From positions 1,440,001 to 1,472,000 of the forward strand of contig NC_009483.1 in NCBI RefSeq assembly GCF_000016745.1: a stretch of 32,000 bases of DNA, read 5' to 3'. Under the pieces are notes generated by a model. That model was not told where the DNA came from. It searched no databases and worked only from the letters and a program-made list of their open reading frames with translations. The position numbers and the translations under genes are program-made. Shown in pieces: positions 2,990-30,962 of this stretch (position 1 is the stretch's first letter; every line of letters starts with the position of its first letter). This stretch comes from Geotalea uraniireducens Rf4. Lineage in GTDB: Bacteria; Desulfobacterota; Desulfuromonadia; Geobacterales; Geobacteraceae.

Positions 2990-3104
2990 CCACGAATGAC
3001 ACGAATTTGCACGAATATACAAGCTCTTGCGATGCAAAAGGCACTCACCAGATCGGTGACTTCTCAAGATTTAACAAAGGGTTAAAAACATTCGTGTTTA
3101 TTCG
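2990..3104. repeat. palindromic array of phased CACGAAT heptamers, interrupted by the group II intron (remaining 12 nt at 5178-5189)
   Basis: CACGAAT at 2991, 3000 and 3010. Inverted ATTCGTG at 3090 and ATTCG at 3100. TGTCATTCGTGG at 5178-5189 is the reverse complement of 2990-3001. Confidence 0.6.
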
Positions 3105-3672
3105 GTACGCCAGGCCAAGCCTGGCTGATCTATCTGACTGAAAAGTGTCAGACATGTAAATTGCTCGTTCACCATGTAGTCGCGGTCTGTCACGAGAGGG
3201 TAACCAAACGTGGGGAGTAAGACCGGTTCTTTGTAAGAAAAGAGCGAAGGGTACGATAACTACCCTGACGACGAAGACGCGAGCCCAGCGCAAGCGAACC
3301 CGTTTCGGCCTCGTTACACGTAGTTGACAGTGGCCAACCTTCCGAATGTGGTGAAGCCTGCCACCCACCGGTGATAAACGAGCGAAAGAACCGGTGGGAC
3401 TGTCCGGGGTGATTGGGGAGGGCGCGTGTCGAAAGATCAGCCGAGGAACCTGGGAGGTCCGACGTAATTCCCAAAGCGAAAGGGTTTCGCCGAAGGGAGA
3501 ACGCCGACGGGGAATCAATAACCCGCCAAGCGTGTACGGTCGGAATTCGGAGCGGCCCATAGTAGCCGGGAAGCGGGGTAATGCCCGTGGAGCCAAGGGG
3601 CCGTACTTCAGTCATGTTTACACGGAAAGAGAGGAGACCCGCTTGAGCGACAGACGCTCCATAACGGAATGG

Positions 3673-4977
3673 ATGGCCGAAGGATTCGAACCTGAACCCG
3701 GACTGCCGGTAAAAGTCTCCCTTCTGCGGTGGAAACTGAGCAGCAAGGCCAAACGAGAACCGCAGTTCCGGTTCTATGCCCTTTACGACCGAATCCATCG
3801 TCGTGATGTACTTGAAACGGCGTGGTTGCGAGTAAAGGCGAACAAGGGCGCGCCGGGAGTCGATGGTGTCAGCATTGAATCCATCGAGGTGCGGGCAGAC
3901 GGAATATCCGGCTATCTTGACGAAATTCAAGAAAGCCTGAGAACCAAAAACTACAAACCATCCCCGGTGCGTCGCGTCTACATCACCAAGCCCAACGGCA
4001 AACTGCGCCCGCTCGGCATACCGTGCGTGCGGGACAGAATTGTACAGGCAGCCGTACTCCTTATCCTCGAACCGATATTTGAGGTGGACTTTCTCGACTG
4101 CTCCCATGGATTTCGTCCCAAAAGGCGTCCCCATGGAGCCCTCGACCAAGTCGGTAATAACCTCCAACTCGGACGGCAGGAAGTGTATGACGCGGATCTT
4201 TCGAGCTACTTTGACAGCATCCCCCACGAGCACCTGATAGTAGAACTTGAGCGGCGCATAGCCGACCGGAGTGTCCTCAAACTGATCCGGCAATGGCTTC
4301 ACAGTCCGGTAGTAGAAGAAGACGGCAGCATCAGCCGTCCCAAACAAGGGACGCCACAAGGCGGGGTAATATCTCCCCTTCTTGCCAACATCTACCTTCA
4401 CCGGCTCGACCGGGCCTTTCACGAAGAAGCAGACAGCCCCTACCACTTCGCCAGAGCGCGCATGGTACGGTTTGCCGACGACTTCGTAGTAATGGCCAGA
4501 CACATGGGCAATCGCATAACCGGATGGCTGGAAGAGAAACTCGAAACAGACCTTGGACTCAGCATCAACCGTGACAAAACCGGTATTGTCAGAATGAACA
4601 AGAAAGAGAGCCTGAACTTTCTGGGATTCACCCTCCGCTATGACCGTGACCTGCGGGGCAGAGATTGGGATTATCTCAACATCATGCCGAGTAAGAAGGC
4701 CATAGGAGCACTCAAGGGAAAAATCCGGGAGAAGACCCGAAGCGGATACAAAAAGCCGCTTGTCGAAGCAATTGCCGAGGTAAACAGCATCCTTCGCGGA
4801 TGGGGCAACTACTTCGACTACGGGTATCCCCGGAAAGTATTTCGAGACGTGAATCATTACACGAGGACTCGCTTTCGAATATTTCTGAACAATCGGAGCC
4901 AAAGGCGGAGCAAACCCTTCAGGGCAGGTGAAAGCCTGTATGCCGGACTTAAGCGATATGGTCTGGTTTACCTGTAA
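3673..4977 (+). CDS. group II intron-encoded reverse transcriptase/maturase (no endonuclease domain evident)
   Basis: [15 protein letters not shown]...[11 protein letters not shown]-terminus, RT blocks (RPLGIP, SHGFRP) and an FADD catalytic motif. Maturase-like tail (ILRGWGNYF). Start chosen at ATG 3673, because the ORF-track start at 3394 lies inside ribozyme domains. Confidence 0.9.
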
Positions 4978-5028
4978 CAGCAAAGCCACAACTCCTCAAT
5001 AATGCCGTGCAGCAAGAGGCTGATAGGT

Positions 5029-5061
5029 AAGCCGTATGCGGGAAATCCGCACGTACGGTTT
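5029..5061 (+). ncRNA. domain V of intron 1
   Basis: AAGCCGTAT-GCGG-GAAA-TCCGC-AC-GTACGGTTT. This gives a 9-bp lower helix with an AGC triad, a 2-nt AC bulge and a GAAA loop, matching the textbook domain V. Confidence 0.85.
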
Positions 5062-5211
5062 GACGAGGGGGAGCTGGTTAAGGCAACTATGGTAAGGCTA
5101 CTTAGGCACCGCCAAACGAAAGGGGCGGAAACGGACAAGCCAAACCTAATGATGTAGTAACCTGCTTCCTACTCTACTGTCATTCGTGGCTAACTGCCCT
5201 TTTTGGGTTAA

Positions 5212-7881
5212 TTACTTGACGGGGAGCGTGGCGATTACCCGCAATCCTCCGCCGTCCCGGTTTTCCGCCCGGATCTTTCCATGATGGGCTTCGACGATTC
5301 CCTTGCAGATGGAGAGCCCGAGTCCGGTTCCGCCGGCACCCTCGGGGACCGGAATCCGGTAGAACTTGTCGAAGATCCTCTTCAGGTCTGACTCCGGTAC
5401 ACCGGGGCCGCGGTCGGAAACCTCCAGCGTCAGTCTGCCGTCGTCCACCCGGGCGGCAATGTCGATAATGCTCGCATGCGGCGAATATTTCAAGGCGTTA
5501 TCCAGCAGGTTCACCAGCACCTGGGTCATCAGCGCCATGTCCAGCTTGACCAGCGGCAGGCCGTCCGGCAGCTGCACCTTGACTTCCCTTGCGCCGATTC
5601 GCTGTTCCAGCGCGGCCAGGGCGCATCCGACCAGGTCCTGAATGTCGCACGGTTCTTCCTTCAAGGTGACCGCGCCGGCTTCCAGGCGGGTCATGTCCAG
5701 CAGGTTCCCGACAAAGCGGTTCAGCCGCCCGGCCTCTTCCCATGCGGCATCGAGAAGCTCCCGCCGTCTCGTATCGCTTAACCGGTGTTCCTTGTCCCGG
5801 AGGGTGCCCAAGGCCCCGGTTATGGATACGAGCGGAGTCCGCAAGTCGTGGGAAACGGAATTGAGGAGGGCCCGTTCCAGGGTTTCCCGTCCCTGGAGGA
5901 TCAGGGCCTGTGCGGCCTGTTTTCCGAGCTGGACCCGCTCGATGGCAAGGGTCGTCTGGGTGGTGAAGGCGTCGAGAAGCCTGCGGCTCTGGGTGTTGGC
6001 ATAATCCGCCTCGTCTTCCAGCTCTACCCCCAATACGCCGAGCACGCTCGCCGAAGTCTGCAACGGAAGATAGAGGAGCCGGGCCGAACTGAGGGTTTCG
6101 GTGCCGTGCCCCGCAGACTGGCGGTTCCGAAATGCCCAGTCGGCCACCGCCAGCTCCTTCGTATCAAGCTGCATTTCACGGCTTGCGGCCTTTATCTCCA
6201 GGCGCTCACCTTCCGGGATAAGGACAGCCAGCCTGCCGTTGAAGCTTTCTCCGAAGTTCTTGGCTACGGCGTCCAGGACCGCCCCGATGTCGGCGGAAAC
6301 GGCCAGGTCGCGACTCAGGTAGTAGAGGCTCGCTGTCTGGACTTCCCGCTTTCGTATCGCCTCGGCCCGTTCGCGGGACCTGGCGACAAGGGTGCTGATC
6401 ACCACCCCCACCGTGAAGAGGGCGACGAAGGTGATGAGATATTCGGTATCGGCAACGGCGAAGGTCAGGCGTGGCGGGACGAAGAAGAAGTCGAAGGCGA
6501 GAATCCCCAGAAATGCCGTAACGATCGCCGGTTTCAGTCCGAGCCGGAGCGCCGCCAGCACCACCGCCAATAGATACGCCATGACCATGTTGGTCGGCGC
6601 CAGGAACGGGCGGACCAGTTCACAGGCAAGGGTTGCCGCGGCAACGAGCGCCAGGCTCTTCATGTAGCCGGACCAGGGGGATGGGCTTTTGCGCCTGGCT
6701 AGAGCCGTTCCCTCGCTCTTTTCGGAAGGCTCGATGCTGACGACGTAGACGTCGATCGTCCCGCTCCTGCGGATGATCTGGTCGACGAGGGGAGGATTCA
6801 GGAATTCCATCCAGCGCGGCTTGGTCGGTTTGCCGACCACGATCTTCGTGACGTTATGCTTGACGGCAAAGTCGATGACAGAATCGGCCACCGAGGTTGC
6901 CGAGACAGTCGCCACCTCTCCCCCCAGGCTTTCGGCGAGCCGGAGGTCCTTCCAGACCCGCTCCCGGTTTTCCTGCACATGCTTCCCACTGCCGGGAGTT
7001 TCGATGTAGACCGTGTACCAGTGCGCCTTCATCTCATCCGCAAGCCGCCGTGTCGAGCGGATCAGCTTTTCACCGAAAGGGCTGCCGCTCACGCAGACCA
7101 GGAGTCGCTCCGCGGCGGGCCATGGACCGGCGATGGAGCGCGTCTCCATGTAGGCCCGCATCTCTTCGTCCACGCGGACTGCGGCCCGTCGCAGCGACAG
7201 CTCCCGCAGGGCGATCAGGTTCCCCGGCTTGAAAAACTTCTCCATTGCCAGGGTCGCCTGTTTAGGGATGTAGACCTTCCCTTCGTGGAGACGCTGGAGG
7301 AGTTCATCCGGCGGTATGTCCACCAGCCTGATCTCCGCCGCCTCGTCCAGGAGCCGGTCGGGAACGGTCTCCCGCACCACCACGCCGGTAATCTGGGCGA
7401 CGATGTCGTTCAGGCTCTCGAAGTGCTGAATGTTGACCGTGGTGTAGACGTCGATCCCGCTGGCCAGGATCTCCTCCACATCCTGCCACCGCTTCTCGTG
7501 GCGGGAGCCGCGGGCATTGGTGTGGGCCAGCTCGTCCACCAGGGCTATCTGGGGCTTTCTGGCAAGCACCGCATCGGTGTCCAACTCAGGAAGTAACACC
7601 CCCATATGCTCGATCTGCGCCTTGGGGATGATCTCCACCCCGGACATGGAGAGTAGCGAGTCGGTCTCGAACCGGCCGTGGGACTCCACGTAGGCGGCCA
7701 CCACGTCCCGTCCCTCCATTTTCCTCTGCCACCCCGCTTCCAGCATGGCATAGGTCTTCCCGACCCCTGCGGCGTAGCCGAGAAATATCTTCAGCTTCCC
7801 CCTTCCGTCTTCCTTTTCTTCCGCCTGGGCCAGCTTCAGCAGGGCTTCCGGTGAGGGGCGTTTGTCGTCGTTGTCGGTCAT
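5212..7881 (-). CDS. kdpD: sensor histidine kinase KdpD
   Basis: 889 aa. KdpD N-terminal P-loop domain (LGYAAGVGKTY), a Usp-like region, a 4-TM block and a GAF-like region. HisKA (SHDLRTPL) and HATPase (GGTGLGLSI). The start overlaps the kdpC stop (ATGA). Confidence 0.95.
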   Translation of the reverse strand: MTDNDDKRPSPEALLKLAQAEEKEDGRGKLKIFLGYAAGVGKTYAMLEAGWQRKMEGRDVVAAYVESHGRFETDSLLSMSGVEIIPKAQIEHMGVLLPELDTDAVLARKPQIALVDELAHTNARGSRHEKRWQDVEEILASGIDVYTTVNIQHFESLNDIVAQITGVVVRETVPDRLLDEAAEIRLVDIPPDELLQRLHEGKVYIPKQATLAMEKFFKPGNLIALRELSLRRAAVRVDEEMRAYMETRSIAGPWPAAERLLVCVSGSPFGEKLIRSTRRLADEMKAHWYTVYIETPGSGKHVQENRERVWKDLRLAESLGGEVATVSATSVADSVIDFAVKHNVTKIVVGKPTKPRWMEFLNPPLVDQIIRRSGTIDVYVVSIEPSEKSEGTALARRKSPSPWSGYMKSLALVAAATLACELVRPFLAPTNMVMAYLLAVVLAALRLGLKPAIVTAFLGILAFDFFFVPPRLTFAVADTEYLITFVALFTVGVVISTLVARSRERAEAIRKREVQTASLYYLSRDLAVSADIGAVLDAVAKNFGESFNGRLAVLIPEGERLEIKAASREMQLDTKELAVADWAFRNRQSAGHGTETLSSARLLYLPLQTSASVLGVLGVELEDEADYANTQSRRLLDAFTTQTTLAIERVQLGKQAAQALILQGRETLERALLNSVSHDLRTPLVSITGALGTLRDKEHRLSDTRRRELLDAAWEEAGRLNRFVGNLLDMTRLEAGAVTLKEEPCDIQDLVGCALAALEQRIGAREVKVQLPDGLPLVKLDMALMTQVLVNLLDNALKYSPHASIIDIAARVDDGRLTLEVSDRGPGVPESDLKRIFDKFYRIPVPEGAGGTGLGLSICKGIVEAHHGKIRAENRDGGGLRVIATLPVK

Positions 7882-10647: not shown

Positions 10648-10800
10648 GTAGGGGCGGGGTTGCCCCGCCCGCCTTTCATCGCAGATTGTCAAGGGCGGGG
10701 AAACCCCGAGGGCGGGGAAACCCCGAGGGCGGGTAAACCCCGAGGGCGGGTAAACCCCGAGGGCGGGTAAACCCCGAGGGCGGGGAAACCCCGCCCCTAC
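10648..10800. repeat. REP doublet with internal minisatellite in the kdpA-kdpB gap
   Basis: Left end is GTAGGGGCGGGGTTGCCCCGCCC (10648-10670). The right end read in reverse complement is GTAGGGGCGGGGTTTCCCCGCCC (10778-10800). These 23-nt terminal inverted repeats differ by one loop nucleotide. Confidence 0.6.
10693..10794. repeat. 17-nt tandem repeat x6 (GGGCGGG[G/T]AAACCCCGA)
   Basis: Units start at 10693, 10710, 10727, 10744, 10761 and 10778. Each unit holds a CGGGG-AAA-CCCCG mini-hairpin. The array runs to within 2 nt of the kdpA stop codon (10797-10799). Confidence 0.9.
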
Positions 10801-12575
10801 CGCATCATAATCAATTGTTCGGCGATCGGCCCCATGGCCAGGGCCGGGAAAAAGGTGAGCGCGCCGACGATCAGGATGACCAGCGTCAGCCAGAGGGCAA
10901 AAGGCGCCTGATCGGTGGGAAGGGTGCCGAGGCTGGGTGGTACGTATTTTTTCTCCGCCAGGCCGCCGGCCATGGCGAGCACCGCCACCGCCGGGACAAA
11001 GCGGCCCAGTAACATGGCCACCGCGCCGGTCAGATTGTAGAAGAGGGTGTTGCCGTTCAGCCCGGCGAAGGCGCTGCCGTTGTTGTTGGACATGGAGGCA
11101 AAGGCGTAGAGCACCTCGGAGAGGCCGTGGGCGCCGGAGTTATTCATGGAGGAGACCCCGGCCGGCAGGATCATGGCAATCCCCGAGAAGATGAGGACCA
11201 GGATGCCGGAGGCGAGGACGGTAGTGATCGACATCCACATCTCCCGCACCTCGATCTTCTTGCCGAGGTATTCGGGGGTGCGGCCGATCATCAGCCCGGC
11301 GACGAAAACTGCGATCACCACGAAGGCGAGCATGGTGTAAAGCCCCGTGCCGACTCCGCCGAAAATCACCTCGGAGAGGAGGATCAGGGAGAGCGGCACC
11401 ATGCCGCCGATCGGGGTGAGGGAATCGTGCATGGTGTTGACCGCGCCGCAGGAGGTGCCGGTGGTGGCAGTGGCGAAGAGGGCGCTCCCTGCCAGGCCGA
11501 AGCGGGTCTCCTTCCCTTCCATGTTGATGCCGTGCACGCCGAGCTTCGCCACCAGCGGGTTGCCGCTACTCTCCGCCCGGTAGAAAACGCCTATCGCCAG
11601 GATGAGGATGGCCAGCATCACCGCCAGGAGCGCCCATCCCTGACGGGTATTCCCGGCCATGCGGCCGAAGGTATAGGTGAGCCCGCCGGAGATGAGGAGG
11701 ATCAGGAAGACCTCGAAGATGTTGGAGAGGGGCGTCGGGTTTTCGAAGGGGTGGGCCGAGTTGGCGTTGAAGAAGCCGCCGCCGTTGGTGCCGAGCTCCT
11801 TGATCGCCTCCTGGGAGGCGACCGGCCCCATGGGAATGGTGACTTCCTTGACCGTCACGCTCTCGGTCACCGGATTTCCCTTGGCATCCTTGATGGGGGT
11901 CCCCTTGGCGTCCAGCCGCGGTTTCTCAAAGCTGGTTGCCTGCACGAGCGGCACCGTTTTATATGGGGAGAAGTTCTGGATCACCCCCTGGGAGACCAGG
12001 AATATTGCGGCAATGAGCGAAAGCGGCAGGAGGATGTAGAGGGTGCACCTGGTCGTATCCACCCAGAAATTTCCGAGGGCGGAGCTCTTGCGCCGCACCA
12101 GACCGCGGATTGCGGCAATCGCTATGACGATGCCGGTGGCGGCGGAGGTAAAGTTGTGCACCGCGAAGCCGAACATCTGGGTGAAGTAGCTGGCGGCCGC
12201 TTCACCGCCGTAATTCTGCCAGTTGGTGTTGGTCGTGAAGCTGATGGCTGTATTGAGCGCCAGTGGCCAGGAAAATGCCGGTAATTTCTGCGGATTGAGG
12301 GGCAAAATTCCCTGGAGGAGCAGCATCGCAAAGAGGCTCACGGCGAACACCAGGTTAAAGAGGAGCATGGCACAGGCATAGCGCTTCCACCCCATCTCAT
12401 CGTCCTTGTCCACCCCGCAGATCCGATAGAGGAGATTCTCGCAGGGGACAAAGACGGGCGACAGGAGGGTCCGCTCTCCCTGGAAGACTTTGGCCATGTA
12501 AGTGCCAAAGGGCTTTATCAGCGCCAGCAGGACGACGAAAAAGAGAATCGTTTCCAGCCATTCATACGGGTTCAT
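10797..12575 (-). CDS. kdpA: K+-transporting ATPase subunit A
   Basis: 592-aa polytopic membrane protein with a KdpA-like N-terminus ([13 protein letters not shown]...) and selectivity-filter-like TNGGGFF. GGAGA RBS. Confidence 0.95.
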
Positions 12576-12861
12576 AATTTGGTCTCCGGTTGATATCGTT
12601 CTTTACCAAGTTTACCACGCAATACGCTTGCAGACAGGAGCGGGCCGTGTGCGGAGTTCCCGGCGCTGCAAACGGACCGTTCCATGATTGTCACTGTAGC
12701 GCGAAAGTGATAAAGGGGGGCTCAAGATGCCATGGAAAGACGTCAAGAAGTTATCAAGATGTGGAAGAGAAAGAGCAGCCCCGGCTGCATTTGTATTTGC
12801 CTCAGCCGGTGATAACCTTTACCCTTGAAACGCAGCGTGATTAAATTCCTGGAGGTGCTTC

Positions 12862-13347
12862 ATGCGGAAATCCGTCATCAAGGGAATCTTCAGTTCGGCT
12901 CTGTCGGCTGTCAGCAGCATCGGCGCCCGCTCTCTGGAGCCGGGGGAAAAGGCTCCCCCCTTCGAGGCCCCCTCGACCAGCGGAGTGGTGCGGCTGGCCG
13001 ATTACCTGGGGAAGCGGAACGTGCTGCTTGCCTTCTATTTCGTCGACTTCACCCCGACCTGAACGGATGAGATGCGGGCCTTTCAGCGGGACCTCTCCCG
13101 CTTCGAAGGCCTCAACGTCCAGGTCCTGGGCGTAAGTCCCGACAGCCCCGCCACCCACGATGAATTCAGCGCCAGGCACGGCATCACCTTTCCCCTCATC
13201 TCCGACGAGAAAGGGGCGGTGCAGAGGCAGTACGCTCCCGGCCGCGTCACCTTCATCATCGACAAGGCCGGAATCGTCCGTTTCATCCAGAAGGGGGTGC
13301 CGGACAACGAGCTGCTCCTCGGGGAACTGGAAAAACTCGAGACTTGA
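12862..13347 (+). CDS. peroxiredoxin (Bcp/PrxQ-like), predicted selenoprotein with Sec at TGA 13060-13062
   Basis: ORFs 12862-13062 and 13072-13347 share one frame. The joined sequence reads ...LLAFYFVDFTPT-[TGA]-TDEMRAF...VLGVSPDS...FPLISD. The TGA sits where the peroxidatic Cys of the TPxCTxE motif belongs. GGAGG RBS before ATG 12862. Confidence 0.75.
13077..13111 (+). promoter_or_regulatory. candidate bacterial SECIS stem-loop
   Basis: It begins 15 nt after the TGA. Lower stem GGCCTT/AAGGCC, upper stem AGCGGGA/TCCCGCT, apical loop CCTC. The loop lacks the usual G/U, so this is tentative. Confidence 0.4.
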
Positions 13348-13361
13348 TACTTAATTCCTCC

Positions 13362-13390
13362 TTGACTTATATAAGCACATCGATTAAATT
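13362..13390 (+). promoter_or_regulatory. sigma70-like promoter candidate for the DTW gene
   Basis: TTGACT (13362-13367), a 17-nt spacer, then TAAATT (13385-13390). Confidence 0.35.
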
Positions 13391-13453
13391 CCGCCCCTGT
13401 CCCGAATTGCACGCATACTTCGATATTTTTCAAAGGTAAAGAGTTCCACTGTT

Positions 13454-14056
13454 ATGGGTTCCAGATCAAAACGAAGCGAACGTTGCCCGCGGTGCCGAAT
13501 GCACGTTCCCCTGTGCATTTGCCGATCGATTCCCCGGTATGCCCTCGATACCCGTCTCGTCCTCGTGATGCACCATCGCGAGCACATAAAGACCACTGCG
13601 ACCGGTCCACTTGCCCTTGAAGCTCTGCCCAACAGCGAATTGCGCATTCACGGTCATCGGGACCGGCCGCTAGATTTCAGCGATCTCGACATTCCCGACC
13701 GGAGAACGCTTCTCCTCTACCCGGGAGATGACGTTCCGGTACTGAGCAGGAGTTTACTGGAGCAGGACAACCGGCCCGTCACCCTCGTGGTTCCTGACGG
13801 CAACTGGCGTCAGGCCTCCAGAATGGGACGGAGGCTTCCAGGACTTGAGCACGCGGAAATGGTCCGGCTTCCGGAAGGACCTCTGACCCGGTGGGGAATC
13901 CGAAGAGAGGCCCACCCGCAGGGCCTGGCGACATTCGAAGCCATTGCCAGGGCCCTCGGCATCATTGAATCACCTGCTGTTCAGGCGGGCATGGAAGATC
14001 TCTTTCGCCTCATGGTGCAAACAACACTCCATTCACGAGGATGCCCGGTCGTATAG
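13454..14056 (+). CDS. DTW-domain protein (tRNA-uridine aminocarboxypropyltransferase family)
   Basis: N-terminal Cys cluster CPRCRMHVPLCIC, and LVVPDGNWRQA in place of the DTW motif. About 200 aa, typical for the family. Confidence 0.8.
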   Translation: MGSRSKRSERCPRCRMHVPLCICRSIPRYALDTRLVLVMHHREHIKTTATGPLALEALPNSELRIHGHRDRPLDFSDLDIPDRRTLLLYPGDDVPVLSRSLLEQDNRPVTLVVPDGNWRQASRMGRRLPGLEHAEMVRLPEGPLTRWGIRREAHPQGLATFEAIARALGIIESPAVQAGMEDLFRLMVQTTLHSRGCPVV

Positions 14057-14115
14057 GCGGACCTGCCTTACGACGTGAGTCGTTACAATATGTGAGCAAA
14101 ACCGAACTGCAATAG

Positions 14116-14220
14116 CACACGGATTTAACGGATTGTACGGATTTACACGGATTTTTTTAGCAAGATTTTTTATTTAGTCTTATCCGTGATAATCCGTCAA
14201 AATCAGATTTTATCCGTGTG
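14116..14220. repeat. palindromic array of phased ACGGATT/ATCCGT heptamers
   Basis: ACGGATT at 14119, 14128, 14137 and 14147. Inverted ATCCGT at 14182, 14192 and 14212, plus a degenerate copy near 14202. The termini CACACGGAT...ATCCGTGTG are inverted. Confidence 0.7.
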
Positions 14221-14302
14221 AAAATGTCTTTTGGTTTTTCCTGTTTGGTTCCGGCTTCGCCGGCTTAGGTGGGATGAATTTAGCTGTTTGAATGTTCGAA
14301 AG

Positions 14303-14323
14303 ACCCGCGCAAGCGGGTTTTTT
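14303..14323 (+). terminator. intrinsic terminator T1
   Basis: ACCCGC-GCAA-GCGGGT followed by a run of 6 T. No annotated gene ends nearby. Confidence 0.6.
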
Positions 14324-14439
14324 GCGTTCAAAAAGAGGTGGGTGTAAGGGCGGTCCCGAAAAGGTGTGGGAAATAAGGTAGAAGGAACCGCCCGCCAAGC
14401 AGAAGGAAAAAGGTGAAGAAAAGAAATAGAGTGATGGAA

Positions 14440-14469
14440 AAGGGTTAGCTGAAAGGCTAACCCTTTTTT
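14440..14469 (+). terminator. intrinsic terminator T2 (hairpin also usable from the minus strand)
   Basis: 10-bp stem AAGGGTTAGC/GCTAACCCTT, loop TGAAAG, and a run of 6 T. On the minus strand the hairpin is followed by TTTT. Confidence 0.75.
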
Positions 14470-14474
14470 AGTTA

Positions 14475-15125
14475 GTGCGCCAGGCATGGCGCGTGGCGCG
14501 TAAGCGCCATCCAATCAGGTGTGGTGCCTGATTGGTGACTTGGAGGTGCAAGTCCTCTACGGACCCTGATGGTGGGAACCGTTAGCCGAACAGCAAGGGT
14601 GTCCGGGGCGACCCGGAATCTGAAGGAAGCTGTAAGCAAAGTCCCGGCCCGACGAACAGGAATCGCATATGAGGCAGCCACATCTGGGCGAGAGGGCTAA
14701 GAGACTCAAAACCCGATTACCATCCGGAAGGTGTGGAAGTAGATGCGGCGGGTGTATGGGATGAAGGTCACGCGAATTACCCTGGGAGATCTGGCAACCT
14801 GCCTTGTGCTACCGACATCGAGAGGTGTCGGGATGGGATGCCAGAAGTCAGCAGACGCCATATTAGTCGGCCTTACCAGTTGATGAAGGGCTGAACCTGT
14901 CAGAGCGTCCTTGATGGATATTCTGATTGTCTTGAGCAGAAGCCTCGCAAGAGGGCCTGATAAACCCGTAAGTAGCGGACGGAATCCGTGAGGCAGGGTT
15001 GGGTGCTTATAGGACATCAGGGATGGAAGTCAATAACGGAACATGCTGACAGGAATCGCCGTGTACGGAACCGTACGCACGGTGGTGTGGGAGGACGGCG
15101 GGGGCGACCCCGCCTCCTACCCGAT
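14475..15125 (+). mobile_element. ORF-less group II intron-like RNA (651 nt)
   Basis: 5' GTGCGCCAGGC. Domain V at 15056-15085. Domain VI at 15089-15122 has a GCGA tetraloop and bulged A15119, 7 nt from the AT-3' end. No RT-like ORF is present inside. Confidence 0.75.
15056..15085 (+). ncRNA. domain V of intron 2
   Basis: TCGCCGTGT-ACG-GAAC-CGT-AC-GCACGGTGG. This gives a 9-bp lower helix with a CGC triad and an AC bulge, but only a 3-bp upper helix and a non-GNRA loop. Confidence 0.7.
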
Positions 15126-15650
15126 TCATTATTTATAGTTGCCATCAATAATCGGCCAAAGCCGACCGTTTCCAATGGTTCGCCGCAGTGCAGACATAAA
15201 CAAAACCACTATCCCACGCAATTTCACCTTGATAACAGTTACTTCCACTGGCTGGAGTTCTTGGGGTATCAATACGAATGGTATCTCCTGCCATATGCAG
15301 TTTTCCGGTTCCTGAGAGGGCCGGGGCCGTGGTGCCTATACCCACAATGCCATTGTAGTTTATACGCATTCTTTCCGGTTTATATTTATCTACTCCGGTA
15401 GAAAAACGAATATTGGAGGGGGCATAGTTTAAGGCAACAGGGCCTGCTTGACTATCTATGCCGAGTATTATGCTTGCTGAGGCAAGATATTGTGCCCCAT
15501 CATAAGCGAGTCCGTGGAAGGCAGCGACATTATCGCCCTGTAACACAGCAGTTGGCGCGGATGATGAACCGCGACTCCCTCTGTGCCAATATAAGTGAGA
15601 CACTTACCTCCCCTTAAATTACTGTAGAGGGTGGGGAGGAAAGAAAGGAT

Positions 15651-16154
15651 ATGACCATCAGTAATGTGAAGCGCATCCCGGTAATTGCAGGAGCCCGTAA
15701 GGCGAGTGCAATTACCGGGATGGCCCCCGAAGATTTAACTCGGCAACAGCAGGAATTGACTACCTCACCGCCTGACCCGGAGGTAGCGGAAAAGCCTGTA
15801 CGCAGGCGTTTCACGGCTAAGTACAAACTTGACATCCTAAACCAAGTCGACTCTTGCACCAAGCCCGGTAGCCTGGCAGCGCTATTACGTCGAGAGGGGC
15901 TTTATGCTTCCAACCTCAACACCTGGCGCCGCCAGCGGGATGAAGGAAGCCTTGCGGCGCTTACGCCCAAGCAGAGGGGCCGTAAAGCGCTAAAGCCCGA
16001 TCCCATGGCCGTCGAGAACGAGCGACTGCGCAAGGAGATTACCCGCCTTGCCAAACGCCTCAAACAGGCCGAGTTGATCATCGATGTCCAAAAAAAAGTC
16101 TCGCAGATCCTGGGGATCACCTTGGATACGCCGCCAGAGAGCGAGAGCGACTGA
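15651..16154 (+). CDS. IS3 transposase OrfA (HTH/leucine zipper part)
   Basis: 167 aa, typical IS3 OrfA. It ends just downstream of the A-run slippery site. Confidence 0.85.
   Translation: MTISNVKRIPVIAGARKASAITGMAPEDLTRQQQELTTSPPDPEVAEKPVRRRFTAKYKLDILNQVDSCTKPGSLAALLRREGLYASNLNTWRRQRDEGSLAALTPKQRGRKALKPDPMAVENERLRKEITRLAKRLKQAELIIDVQKKVSQILGITLDTPPESESD
16090..16098 (+). promoter_or_regulatory. programmed -1 frameshift slippery run (A8G)
   Basis: AAAAAAAAG lies in the orfA/orfB overlap window, like the IS3-family A6G/A7 motifs. Confidence 0.6.
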
Positions 16155-17152
16155 TGGAAGCTGTCGAAATACTTGCCCCTGATGTGGGCACCGATCCTGC
16201 CTGTAAAGCTCTTGGTGTTTCCCGTGCCGGGCTGTATCGCAGGCGCGCAATCAGCAAGACAGCGCCGCGTGTACCCCAAAAGCGCCCTGTGCCGCCACGG
16301 ACCTTGCCATCAGAGGAAAGGCAGGCAGTACTCGATATTCTGCATTCCGAGCGCTTTCAGGACAAGGCACCCCATGAGGTGTATGCAACGCTTTTGGACG
16401 AAGGGGCCTATCACTGCTCGATCCGCACGATGTATCGAATTCTCGAAGAAAACGCCGAAGTCAAAGAGCGGAGAAATCAGTTGCGGCATCCCGACTACAA
16501 AAAGCCTGAGCTTCTGGCAACGGCCCCAAATCAAGTCTGGTCGTGGGATATTACCAAATTGATGGGGCCTGCTAAATGGTCCTATTTTTACCTCTATGTG
16601 ATTCTCGATATCTTCAGCCGCTATGTGGTCGGCTGGATGGTTGCAACCTGCGAGTCGTCGGAACTGGCCAAACGGCTGTTCAAAGAAACGTGTGAGAAAC
16701 AAGTCATCCAGAAAGGGCAGTTAACGATCCACGCCGATCGCGGCTCTTCCATGAAATCCAAGCCGGTAGCTTTTCTGTTTGCTGATCTGGGGATCACTAA
16801 AACGCACTCAAGGCCCTATACGAGCGACGACAACCCATATTCGGAAGCCCAATTTAAAACGCTGAAATATCAGCCTGATTTCCCGGAAAGATTCGGCAGT
16901 ATAGAAGACGCAAGATCGTTCTGCCAAACCTTTTTCCCCTGGTATAACCAGGAACACAAGCATTCCGGCATCAGCCTACTTACACCTGAAGTAGTACATT
17001 ACGGCAGAGCTGAGGAAGTCATCCGATCAAGGCAAACCGTGTTGACTGCTGCTTATGCAGCCCATCCTGAACGCTTCGTCAGGAAAATACCATTACATAA
17101 ACCGTTACCGGAAGCGGCGTGGATCAACCCGCCAAAACCGGCCACTAGCTAA
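16154..17152 (+). CDS. IS3 transposase OrfB (DDE/rve integrase core), probably made as an OrfAB fusion
   Basis: WSWDIT...LYVILDIFSR...HADRGS...NPYSEAQFKTLKY are typical of rve-domain cores. The -1 frame is open from 16091 to the ATG at 16154. Confidence 0.9.
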   Translation: MEAVEILAPDVGTDPACKALGVSRAGLYRRRAISKTAPRVPQKRPVPPRTLPSEERQAVLDILHSERFQDKAPHEVYATLLDEGAYHCSIRTMYRILEENAEVKERRNQLRHPDYKKPELLATAPNQVWSWDITKLMGPAKWSYFYLYVILDIFSRYVVGWMVATCESSELAKRLFKETCEKQVIQKGQLTIHADRGSSMKSKPVAFLFADLGITKTHSRPYTSDDNPYSEAQFKTLKYQPDFPERFGSIEDARSFCQTFFPWYNQEHKHSGISLLTPEVVHYGRAEEVIRSRQTVLTAAYAAHPERFVRKIPLHKPLPEAAWINPPKPATS

Positions 17153-26531: not shown

Positions 26532-29500
26532 TATAGATCCTTGCTGCCCCCAGATGTTGAAAAAATACGGGTCGCCGGCTTTTGCCGGTCCCGGTCTTTC
26601 GAGCTGAATCGCAAGCTCGCTACGCTCGTTGCAATTCAGCTCGAAAGACCGTGGCTAAACAACCCATCTGAGGCGACAACTATTCTGACACAGGGGGATA
26701 GCTGTATTCCCAATACCCCATGTCCGGGTCGGTCATGTTCTTTTTCCGCCCCAAGGTGTCGTACTCAATGTGCGTTTTTTTCTGATTGGCGACGGGCACG
26801 CCCATCTGGTTGGCATCGATTACATCCGTAAGATTTCCAAGAACGTCGTAAGTATAGGTGGTAGTAGCGTAAAGTGTGAACTGGCTTGGATTCTGAGTTG
26901 TGTCGCATGTCGTGGAGGTCCCCGTGTACTCTTCCACTGTAACAAGACGTCCCAGTGCATCCCGCGTTTCACGCCTGCGGTGGCCGTTTTCGTCTATGAA
27001 GACGCTCACGAGGTCGTTGTAGCAGGCCAGTGTGAACGTGTTGTCCGGGTTGGTTGTTCTCGTCACTCTTCCCATCGGGTCATAGGTGTAAGTCCGGTAA
27101 ACCGGCGTTTCAACGCCCTCAAAATAAGGGGCTGAAACACTGTTCACCTTTCCTCTTTGGTCATATACCGTTTCGGTGACGATAACCTTGTTGTCAGGCC
27201 CGCTTTTCCGTACCTTGAATGTCCGTCCCAAGCCGTCGAAATAGGAGGCGGACCACATGCCCAACTGATTATAGGTATAAACGTTTTGACTGCCGACCGT
27301 ACCGAAGGAGTTATAAGCAGTACTCGTCGAGAACAGGTCCGGCTGAATATCCTTTGTCTTTCTGCCGAATACATCGTACACCGCCGTTATGGTCGCGTTG
27401 TTGGGGTCGGAAATACTCTTCAGTTGGCCAAAGCGTCCATTGTCGGCGGCTATGCCGACGCCATAATAGGCGGAGGTCGTCGTCTGGGTCTTGGCATTGG
27501 TGCTTGAGACAGGGAAAGTTTGATAGATGGTGTCAAAACCTGTTGTGGTTACGTTGCCGTTAGGGTCGCGGGTGCATACCGGATTGCCGTAGCCGTCATA
27601 AGCCGTCCGGGTTTCAGAGTTGTTGCCACCATTGAGCCAGCGGGATACGACGGTTAGGTTCCCATTAGTTGGAGTATGATTGTATTGGGAGGCGGCAGAG
27701 CAATTGGCAAGAGGGAAGTCATCGTAATAATAATCCGTCTGGCTGACCTTCAGGTTGGTACCGATATTTGTATCGCCTATGCCTTGGAAAACGCTAACAG
27801 TGGCTGGTAAAGATACTATCCAGTTGGTAACATTTGGTGAAAACTGCCTCTCGATGGTCATGTTCAGGGAGACATTAGCAGGATTCATGATGTCACCATA
27901 ACGATCTTCGCGGGTCACATTGCCGTAATTTGCATGAGGTGAGGTAAGGTAATCATCGTAGTAGTAGACGGTTCGTGTCTGTCGAGCGCTACCACTATCC
28001 CTGCACTGCCCGTATGCTTGCCCATCACAGATGTAGGTGTCTACCTTGGTGGCTGGACTGTAGTTGTAAGGGGTTGACGTGTAAGTCGAGTATGATGTCT
28101 CAGTTTCGGAATATACTTTACCCTGACCGTCAGATATCCGTGTCCTGTAAGGTTTCCCTTTCATGAACCCAACGGTCGCCGATGGGTTGTTCACGTCTAC
28201 AGCGGTATCATCCCCTTGGTGAAACCATGTTTCTGTTACGGTCAGTTCATTGTTCTTTCCGGGACCGATTACCTTCGCAGAGTTGAAGCCGCGAAAGTCC
28301 TTTGCACTGAAATTGTAGTAGCCGCCGGAATAGGAATAGTTCGAGGTGGAGGTGTTGTTGTTACCGTCACTGACGGATACGCTTGAGATAAGTTGCATGG
28401 TGAATGGAAGCTGGGCATACCATGAGGAGGGTGAATAGGAGACGCTGATTTCGCCGCCAAGGCCGTTGGAGACGTGCGTAAGAAGGTCAGTCAACGGCGC
28501 GTTGGCATAGCCCGATTCCCAATGAAAAGCTCCACCTGGATAAGAGGTGTCATGTGGATAGCACACGATGTCGGTCTTGCCATCGGCATTATAGTCTCCG
28601 GCAAAGCATTGCTGGCTGACTGACGTTTCAGGAGAAGGGCCGCCGTCCCAAGAAAGGGTGTTCCAGCCGTTTCCGAGAGATAAAGCCGTGCTCCAGATAC
28701 CGCCGGAGGTGTAGCAGGAAATATCGGTTTTGCCGTCGCCATTGAAATCGCCGGACAAGCATTTTGTGTTGATTGGAAAGGAGACGATGGCGCCGCCCAT
28801 CGAGAAAGAGGCCGTGTCCCAGCTGCTGCCGGTTGACAGTTGAACATTCCACAAACCGCTGCCGGAGGCACAGGCAATATCGGTCTTGCCGTCACCGTTG
28901 TAATCTCCAGTCATACAGATTCCGCTCAGGATGTAGTTTGATTTGACGAAGTCCGGAGCCATCCCGTTGCTATACCAAGTGGCAGGCGTCCAACCGTTGC
29001 CGTTGGAGAGGTACATATTCCAGGTGCTGGTGTTCCCGGAGTTGCAGGCAAAGTCGGTTTTGCCGTCGCCGTCGAAGTCACCGGTCAGGCAGTTGTTGGT
29101 TGGATAAGTGAAGGTAGTTGGCCCGTCGGACCATTGGACTGGGCTGCTGCCCCATGCGCTGCCGGTGGACAACGCCATTTTCCAGGTATTGCTGGCATAA
29201 CAGGCAAAGTCCGACTTGCCGTTGCCGTCGAAATCACCGCCAAAACATTGAGTTATGGGCAGAACAGTTGGAGCGTTATGCCAGGTTTCTTTAGTCCAGA
29301 TTTCTCCGGCTCCTCCCGGGAAAACCATGGTCCAGTCCCCGTTATTGGCAAAATTGCAGGCAAGGGCGTTTTTCCCTTCGCCATTGAAATCGCCGGTAAC
29401 GCATTGATGTCCCAAAGAATCCTGGGAAAGATCCGTAGGCTTGTTGCCGTCAGGTAACCATTGCAAAGATATCCCATTCACGTCAAGATTGTTGAATAAA

Positions 29501-30962
29501 TACTTGAGGTCCCACCCGGTGCTACCGGTAGAGCAAAGGATATCGAATCTGCTGCCGAATTTGCCGGGGATGCAGTACATGCCGACAGGGAGCGGCATAG
29601 ATACCCCGATAGGGTCAGAAAGACTCCATCCGCCGCTGGATGTTCCGCCGGCAACGGTGTAACCGTTGGAGTATCCAAGGGTGATAGGCGGCTTTGTGGT
29701 CGTACCGTCACTGCCGTACTCTGTCACCGTGCCGAGAACCGACCTGTTGGTCAGTGGACTGTACTGGTTGCCGGTCGTCGTCGAGTCGGCATCATAGTTC
29801 AGTTCATATTTTCTTACCCGCAAGGGTTGTGTGTTAACTGTGTTATAGTTGGACCAAACCTCGATGGTCTTGAGCCGCTTCGCCGTGGTGACGGCAAAGT
29901 TGGTTGTGTACATTGTCGGGGCGTCGTTGCGGTCTTCGAGGATGAACTTTACAGAATTGGTAGGGGGGAGTTTATGAGTGACAGGGTCGTTGCCGGTGTA
30001 GTCTATCTCGTTCAAGTATAACTGGTTCCGGTCCGGGGTGTAGTTGAGAGTGACGTAATTGCCATTCGTATCGGTTATCAGGTCAAGACACCATTTGAAG
30101 ACGTGGGCCGGCTTGTTGGGGTCGTAGACTGTGGTGTTGGGTTCGTGACCGAAACGGAAGCGTACCCCCTTTTTATCAATCGCTTCCCAATAGGTTCCAT
30201 AATTTATAAACCGAATGAAGTTCCCTTCTATCTTGGCGCGGTATTCGGAGGTGCCGGGGAGATTGACCAATTCCGTTACCCCGCCCGGTCCGCGCAATAG
30301 AAAGTCGCTGGCGTCATAGTTCACGCCTCCTTTGGTGCTCCGCTCTATTGAACCCATTTCCAGTTCCCAGCCGACACCCAGCCAACCGTTGCCGTTCGTG
30401 CTCCGATAGGTGAGGACTATGCCGGGATCTACACCTCTACGGCCGGGCGGGACTTCAATAGGAATGCGATAGCTCATGGTCCCTGTGAAGAGGTCTGGTA
30501 AAGGCGTGTCGCTGTTTGCCGAGGTGTCGGTTCCGTCAGCGACTTCCTTGCCGACAACTTTCTCGTCTGCCGCATGGGCATTTACGGTGAAGAAGATGGA
30601 AAGCGTCAGGCATAGAACGAGAACGGCGTTTTGCAGGGAATTGCCAGCACAACGGATGGGAATCATGTGGAGCCTCCGTTTATATTGCATTAAATTAAAA
30701 GGTAACTATTCAGCGTATATGTTTTGACGTCGGAGGATAGGCATCCTGCCTGTCTTCAGGCGAAGTTTCATCAGCCTGACAAGTTTGAACTGAACACATG
30801 TTCAAGCGATAAACCCGCTTGAAACACAGGCTAGAAGCCTATTGGTTGGTTGGGGAACCATCAAGATATCGCAGTGCTGCCGTTGTCGTTCGTTTTTTCT
30901 TCTTTCCCGGAATTCCTGGCTAACCCTTTCTTGCCTGATTCATATTTCAGAAGATAAACAGG

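Follow-up and report, generated by a model that had tools for sequence, protein, structure and literature searches.

The 32,000-nt stretch of Geotalea uraniireducens Rf4 DNA analysed here (contig NC_009483.1, positions 1,440,001 to 1,472,000; hereafter the window) contains, at 14475–15125 on the + strand, a complete and structurally intact group II intron of class C (IIC) that is 651 nt long and has no open reading frame (ORF). An earlier note, made from the letters of this DNA, had claimed an ORF-less group II intron at this position and had proposed checking it with the Rfam models for domains V–VI and I–IV. An Rfam scan of the 32-kb window at gathering thresholds confirmed the claim, with matches to RF02001 (group-II-D1D4-3) at 14602–14775 (137.6 bits, E = 1e-28, cut-off 32), RF01998 (D1D4-1) at 14809–14891 (65.1 bits, cut-off 35) and RF00029 (domains V and VI) at 15054–15125 (42.3 bits, cut-off 40). 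The resemblance of 14475–15125 to the group II introns of Rfam (RF00029 and clan CL00102) is far above chance, and the sole further group II match in the window, RF00029 at 5027–5177, is part of an intron at 3105–5177 that encodes a reverse transcriptase (RT). Taken as a whole, the data are best explained by an intact IIC intron that lacks an intron-encoded protein (IEP), belongs to an ORF-less lineage multiplying behind terminators, presumably receives RT in trans, and is a selfish ribozyme of the kind published as HYERs (reportedly, hydrolytic endonucleolytic ribozymes; Liu et al., Science 2024). We assign this explanation a probability of about 0.85.

Anatomy and fold of the intron

The fold of the element was derived with RNAalifold from an alignment of 25 family sequences with a mean column identity of 79%. 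The consensus has 154 base pairs in 29 helices that map to domains I to VI (DI–DVI), and 68 of the 154 pairs show compensatory changes on both sides. Standard pairs occupy 98.3% of the cells, versus 37–42% when partners are slid by 1–3 columns and 89.5% in column shuffles, and none of 500 shuffles attained any of the five observed pairing measures. Purifying selection acts on the six-domain ribozyme fold. The intron starts GTGCGCCAGGCATGG and ends CCTACCCGAT, with termini 5' GUGCG at 14475 and GAU 3' at 15125 that agree with the group II pattern of 5' GUGYG and 3' AY, and its parts and adjoining exon sequences are the following.

14435–14470, + strand: intrinsic-terminator-type hairpin (fold −21.8 kcal/mol; an equivalent hairpin and T-run at 46/46 family sites)
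14472–14474, + strand: intron-binding site 1 (IBS1; TTA), the last 3 bases of the 5' exon (mutual-information pairing with exon-binding site 1, EBS1, over 45 sites)
14475–15125, + strand: ORF-less class C (IIC) group II intron, 651 nt (Rfam matches, co-linear homologues, covariation)
14480–14785, + strand: DI (RNAalifold consensus columns 6–318; RF02001 match)
14698–14700, + strand: EBS1 (UAA), in the terminal loop of the Id hairpin 14691–14707 (covariation with the 5' exon)
14786–14849, + strand: DII (consensus columns 319–397; RF01998 begins at 14809)
14850–14856, + strand: J2/3 linker AGCAGAC (unpaired and nearly invariant between DII and DIII)
14857–14891, + strand: DIII (consensus columns 405–441; RF01998 match ends at 14891)
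14896–15053, + strand: DIV, 158 nt, without an ORF (compensatory changes in helices 23, 25, 26 and 27)
15055–15086, + strand: DV, 32 nt (RF00029 alignment; helix 28 100% paired in 25 sequences, with 2 covarying pairs)
15089–15122, + strand: DVI (RF00029 alignment; helix 29 with 4 covarying pairs)
15126, + strand: first 3'-exon base (T), presumed IBS3 (pyrimidine at 46/46 sites: C 33, T 13)

The catalytic domains largely match those read from the letters earlier. DV has the predicted CGC triad (C15057-G15058-C15059, invariant in 25/25 aligned family sequences) and AC bulge (A15075-C15076), with a lower helix of 10 rather than 9 pairs, and DVI has the predicted GCGA loop, the bulged branch-site A15119 as the 7th base from the 3' end at 15125 and, below that A, a 3-bp basal helix (GGG 15089–15091 with CCC 15120–15122). 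The upper helix of DV has only 3 bp and ends in a GAAC loop (15068–15071), which the earlier note had called an oddity; it is, however, invariant in 25/25 aligned members and is also found in the ORF-containing relatives at loci L005 and L011 of our set. Upstream, the hairpin consists of a GC core (14440–14449 with 14456–14465) around the loop 14451–14454 and is followed by a T-run (14464–14469), AGTTA and then the intron, so that GTGCG at 14475 does begin 5 nt past the T-run of a terminator hairpin, as had been claimed. A simple terminator scan did not report the hairpin at 14435–14470, whereas direct folding shows it clearly; we think that the scan missed it because an A/T extension of the stem consumes the T-run.

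These characters place the element in class C. A CGC triad in DV is typical of class C introns. The triad is given as "CGC for some introns" (PMC4424553), a 3-bp DVI basal helix is found in most IIC introns (PMC4748821), and IIC introns insert a few bases 3' of intrinsic terminators (PMC4424553; PMC4748821). The element combines the CGC triad, the 3-bp DVI basal helix and the terminator-adjacent insertion on which its assignment rests. Overall, of the defining characters examined, it shows those of group II introns and the majority of the class C ones. An RT without an endonuclease domain, a further class C feature, is absent from 14475–15125 as there is no ORF to encode it, which is expected of an ORF-less derivative. 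Searches by tblastn with three intron RTs found no RT-like frame in the element, and the ORFs that overlap it, 14706–15017 (− strand), 14988–15401 (+ strand) and 14203–14514 (− strand), have no Pfam match at E up to 0.1.

Target sites, exon recognition and the ORF-less lineage

The earlier note had stated that class C introns typically insert just 3' of intrinsic terminators, and the family bears this out without exception: all 46 distinct insertions (46/46) start 3–8 nt past the T-run of a GC-rich hairpin. The mean minimum free energy of the 42 nt upstream of the 46 sites is −20.9 kcal/mol, versus −10.3 (standard deviation 4.6) for random windows from the same loci, and 5–9 T lie within positions −14 to −3. 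Exon positions −5 and beyond (upstream) correspond to the T-run and hairpin. The 5' exon ends in TTG at 32/46 sites. The first 3'-exon base is never a purine, and 3' exons starting CCTG (14/46) or CCCG (5/46) come mostly from Pseudomonas and Ectopseudomonas. In the window, the insertion junction reads ...TTTTTTAGTTA for the 5' exon and, after the intron, TCATT for the 3' exon.

The loop at 14695–14704 covaries with the end of the 5' exon, in the combinations CAAA/TTTG, CAAT/ATTG, CACA/TGTG, AACG/CGTT and AAAC/GTTT. We compared every intron column with each exon position by mutual information over 45 sites, without assuming where a partner would lie; exon position −1 matched best with 14698 (93% paired) and position −3 with 14700 (98% paired). 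A short EBS1–IBS1 pairing of 3–4 bp is thus found, and it covaries; the EBS1 that the earlier note had proposed to look for in DI lies at 14698–14700. In the window, the EBS1 UAA matches the exon end UUA, and the most similar copy found in a genome (locus L025, 90.2% identity) has CAA with UUG, such that U14698 and exon A−1 represent a double change that preserves pairing. The same scan gave no convincing intron column for EBS3 or for a partner of the CCTG bias in the 3' exon.

Co-linear ORF-less homologues of 644–684 nt are present in plasmids, genomes and metagenomes of several phyla, the closest being 94% identical. Among plasmid records, blastn found 11 with one co-linear match over at least 80% of the element, and the five copies that were retrieved are 651–684 nt long, contain no ORF and lie in unannotated intergenic DNA. 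Plasmid hosts include Sinorhizobium fredii NGR234 (pNGR234b, 76.7% identity) and Rhizobium ruizarguesonis, and copies are also found on Aeromonas IncP-1 plasmids, Pseudomonas megaplasmids and an IncC Citrobacter plasmid. Phage records gave only partial matches, none of full length. In a collection of species-representative genomes, a degenerate pattern specific to the ORF-less DIV and the start of DV matched 75 stretches. One Ectopseudomonas mendocina chromosome (FJFQ21PNM24) accounts for at least 17 of these, Pseudomonas sp. NFX224 for at least 13, P. borbori DSM 17834 for at least 9 and a Hydrogenedentota metagenome-assembled genome (MAG) for 4. Other carriers are Rhizobium, Stutzerimonas, Pelobacter, and MAGs of Desulfobacteria, Nitrospirota, Phycisphaerae, Myxococcales and Rhodospirillales. 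The copy at L025 belongs to a Desulfobacteria MAG and occupies a different locus from that in the window, and a scan of metagenomes with a 33-mer recovered four more copies, 91–94% identical and at unrelated loci. Relatives from peat and sediment-type metagenomes are among the family. The lineage multiplies within genomes by insertion a few bases past intrinsic terminator hairpins.

By blastn, RT-encoding relatives on Brucella anthropi pOANT01 and a Pseudomonas kurunegalensis plasmid align with the element only at its positions 1–425 and 575–651, and DIV, which lies between, has no similarity to theirs. In the element, the DIV closing stem (14896–14901 with 15048–15053) and three internal helices covary, and two hairpins are conserved: CCUC-GCAA-GAGG at 14943–14954 and GCGGA-CGGAA-UCCGU at 14975–14989, the latter after an invariant GUAG. 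The RT-encoding relatives have just about 20–40 nt of DIV on each side of the ORF. Because the ORF-less DIV is structured and contains no RT remnant, and the relatives have such short DIV flanks, we conclude that the ORF-less form is a lineage of its own and not a series of recent deletions. We also considered DIV as a decayed RT gene and rejected this, since tblastn with three RTs at E up to 10 gave matches of only 5–13 residues and the blastn alignments with the RT-encoding relatives stop at 425 and resume at 575.

Head-to-tail tandems of IIC introns without a spacer occur at three loci (L005, 1154–4993; L010, 155–2156; L019, about 4030–6500). In the L019 tandem, an ORF-less copy ending ...CCTACCCGAT is followed directly by GTGTGCC, the start of an RT-encoding IIC intron.

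Two plasmid copies deserve separate description. On the Aeromonas caviae IncP-1 plasmid pKAM345_1, an ORF-less copy (L004, 2001–2682) lies in the IncP-1 backbone, in the gap that follows or precedes a ParB-family gene and separates it from its neighbour. The plasmid has no other copy, and this one is of the 682-nt length class, which occurs many times in the E. mendocina chromosome. This IncP-1 copy could represent a route of horizontal spread. Between bcsB and bcsC of the E. coli plasmid pSF10EC-2 (L006, 2001–3008) is a IIC derivative of ~1 kb that keeps a 54-aa C-terminal remnant of the RT, and it is a case of ORF loss independent of the lineage with the structured DIV.

The neighbouring RT-encoding intron and other surroundings

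The intron at 3105–5177 is, like the element, a group II intron on the + strand of the same 32-kb stretch. It encodes, 9.5 kb from the element, a 434-aa RT/maturase (3673–4977) that is full length with RVT_1 and GIIM domains, and the earlier note had suggested that this protein might mobilise the ORF-less intron and had listed the similar starts of the two introns and a shared string, ATAACGGAA. The first 11 nt of the two do differ at only one base and the string is indeed present in both, but neither resemblance is meaningful. ATAACGGAA lies 5' of the ORF in the intron at 3105–5177 and, in the ORF-less element, close to where DIV ends on its 3' side, and it is one of 4 9-mers common to both introns, versus 6.3 expected from shuffles; the best blastn match between the two introns has E = 7. 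The neighbouring intron belongs to a different structural class, with a GUACG start, an AGC triad and GAAA loop in its DV (5029–5061), and a large insertion in its DVI. The Rfam D1–D4 models do not match it even at permissive thresholds, and no terminator hairpin with a T-run stands immediately upstream of it. Its RT is 32% identical to that of the Brucella relative of the element, whereas the RTs of the Brucella and Pseudomonas relatives (467–473 aa) are 56% identical to each other. Kinship between the element and the intron at 3105–5177 is ruled out by the blastn, k-mer, permissive Rfam and RT identity results taken together, and we consider it very improbable that the element is spliced and mobilised by the RT/maturase at 3673–4977, despite the proximity and completeness of that gene. 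The neighbouring intron appears to be inserted in the right arm of a short-repeat array (CACGAAT at 2992–3016 and ATTCGTG at 3091–3097 and 5183–5189).

The reading frames that flank the ORF-less element are convergent. Upstream of it, the + strand carries a gene for a DTW-domain protein (13454–14056), a repeat array (14119–14217), a terminator-like hairpin (14302–14324; −18.2 kcal/mol) located 115 nt upstream of the intron's own hairpin, and a purine-rich spacer; no gene or Rfam family was recognisable in the spacer between the hairpins at 14302–14324 and 14435–14470. The array 3' of the DTW gene is composed of four ACGGAT units in direct orientation and, after them, three in inverted orientation (ATCCGT). 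Two Logan contigs identical to window positions 12001–14133, including the DTW gene, end inside this array, short of the intron, which suggests that the array is a genome-wide repeat or an assembly breakpoint. Downstream is a 152-aa frame (15145–15603, − strand) that ends 20 nt from the 3' end of the intron, has no Pfam match and is absent from the recorded called genes; possibly it is a fragment of a gene. Beyond it lies an IS3-type transposase pair (15651–17152).

Farther upstream are kdpD, kdpB and kdpA on the − strand, and the gap between kdpA and kdpB (10675–10810) is filled by six to seven tandem 17-nt units, AGGGCGGGGAAACCCCG, each a small hairpin. Elsewhere in the window, a 1336-aa frame (26680–30690, − strand) contains six copies of a 57-nt segment at 28555–29406 with a spacing of about 156 nt, which indicates a repeat-domain protein.

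Mobility and relation to known ribozymes

The element is best regarded, from its anatomy and distribution, as a selfish mobile ribozyme of the published HYER kind. Under this model, read-through of the upstream terminator or terminators would yield intron RNA, which would fold and excise itself. Without a protein, excision would probably occur by hydrolysis, because IIC ribozymes deprived of their protein generally fail to branch (PMC4748821). The free RNA would recognise single-stranded DNA (ssDNA) beside a terminator hairpin through the EBS1–IBS1 pairing of 3–4 nt and one 3'-exon pyrimidine, and would then reverse-splice into, or cleave, this target. A new DNA copy would require RT supplied in trans, most plausibly by a class C intron elsewhere in the genome and not by the RT at 3673–4977; this step is suggested by the choice of the same targets as RT-encoding IIC introns, by the tandem at L019 and by the pattern in the literature (PMC4424553). 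The position after a terminator and between convergent genes would make the element nearly neutral to its host.

Several observations weigh against this model. The 32-kb window shows no class C RT, so that the trans-RT step is one that we infer, and some plasmids carry only the ORF-less form. DIV is unlike that of the RT-encoding relatives, and recognition by their RT is not assured. The window contains a single copy of the element, and transcription must pass two terminator hairpins (14302–14324 and 14435–14470) to reach it. The EBS1–IBS1 match is just 3 bp, with G opposite G at position −4, and one private change, A14711, disrupts the pair at the foot of the stem on which EBS1 lies.

The single copy, the two terminators and the broken pair beside EBS1 could alternatively indicate a dead relic, a once-mobile copy that is now inert and slowly decaying, as the earlier note had also suggested; neither an identical copy nor an empty site was found in the genome or metagenome collections, which do not include the source genome. 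The state of the copy argues otherwise. It has 3 mispairs among the 154 consensus pairs, versus 0–4 in members from multi-copy genomes. Where at least 22 of the remaining 24 sequences agree on a base, the copy has 4 private substitutions, and the other sequences have 0–35. One of its four, U15056, converts a C-G pair of DV to U-G. The triad, the bulge, the branch A and both termini are intact, and EBS1 still matches IBS1 by way of the double change described above. Judged by its sequence, the window copy looks functional, and we regard the relic explanation as unlikely.

A second alternative follows the HYER description more strictly: the element would be a stand-alone hydrolytic DNA and RNA endonuclease that uses no intron RT and is spread by host enzymes or recombination. 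HYERs have been reported to cut RNA and ssDNA without protein (PMC11754743; PMC12990946), IncP-1 plasmids have only an ORF-less copy, at one place per record, and DIV is a conserved, covarying RNA module with no remnant of an RT. However, a DNA copy of an inserted RNA demands reverse transcription, the targets chosen are the same as those of RT-encoding IIC introns, an ORF-less and an RT-encoding intron stand in tandem at L019, and bacterial introns without an ORF are almost always found together with related introns that encode an RT (PMC4424553). We therefore consider this alternative a minority possibility, though a more serious one than the relic, and prefer the model in which RT is provided in trans.

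RT-encoding IIC introns such as O.i.I1, B.h.I1 and A.v.I2 resemble the element in being terminator-adjacent and in having a CGC triad, a 3-bp DVI basal helix and a short EBS1–IBS1 pairing. Recognition of a single 3'-exon base may be a further likeness: in the element's family this base is always a pyrimidine, and the mutual-information scan gave no EBS3 partner column for it. The Brucella and Pseudomonas plasmid relatives are 72–77% identical to the element in DI–DIII and DV–DVI. In contrast to RT-encoding IIC introns, the element has as its DIV a 158-nt structured RNA without an ORF that is unrelated to their short DIV flanks.

ORF-less bacterial group II introns were long regarded as rare oddities. 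According to the HYER work of 2024, IIC introns that lack a protein gene proliferate and are usable as small programmable DNA-cutting RNAs, and structures of HYER1 are said to be available as PDB 8K0P and 8K0S. The element of the window is real but not new in kind, as ORF-less IIC introns were described in 2024 as HYERs, and the ORF-less hydrolytic ribozymes of about 600 nt that the earlier note had mentioned are, by their description, the right comparison. HYERs are ORF-less IIC introns that are multi-copy in their resident genomes, and HYER1 is 637 nt long with a 6-nt target recognition site (PMC11754743; PMC12990946). Likewise, the element's family consists of IIC ribozymes of ~0.65 kb that have no IEP, are multi-copy in some genomes and recognise a short target. 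This likeness is one of published description and anatomy, as opposed to sequence comparison with HYER1–6, and cleavage of RNA and ssDNA has been reported for HYERs, whereas the element is known here from its sequence. In cyanobacteria, ORF-less introns are served by the RT of a related intron (PMC4424553), which is similar to the element in that its RT/maturase is presumably encoded elsewhere; the cyanobacterial case differs in that the lineage of the element is old and dispersed, has its own DIV and did not arise by recent deletion from a co-resident intron.

It is conceivable, if rather doubtful, that DIV (150–190 nt in the lineage) is a functional RNA module that has replaced the protein gene, for example by docking a heterologous or host polymerase or by aiding self-assembly. 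If so, the family would be an old lineage of mobile ribozymes without a protein gene, present in at least five phyla and with its own mode of copying, and the CCTG bias of the 3' exons could belong to the copying mechanism.

Our results add to the HYER-like introns an intact ORF-less IIC member from a different host background, with its closest genome relative in a Desulfobacteria MAG. For the annotation of this region, they mean that the RT-encoding intron 9.5 kb away is no relative of the element. The survey of the family yields a target logo from 46 sites, covariation between EBS1 and IBS1, and a covariation-supported fold that includes DIV, and the genomes with 9 to 17 or more copies are places in which to ask which RT serves the family.

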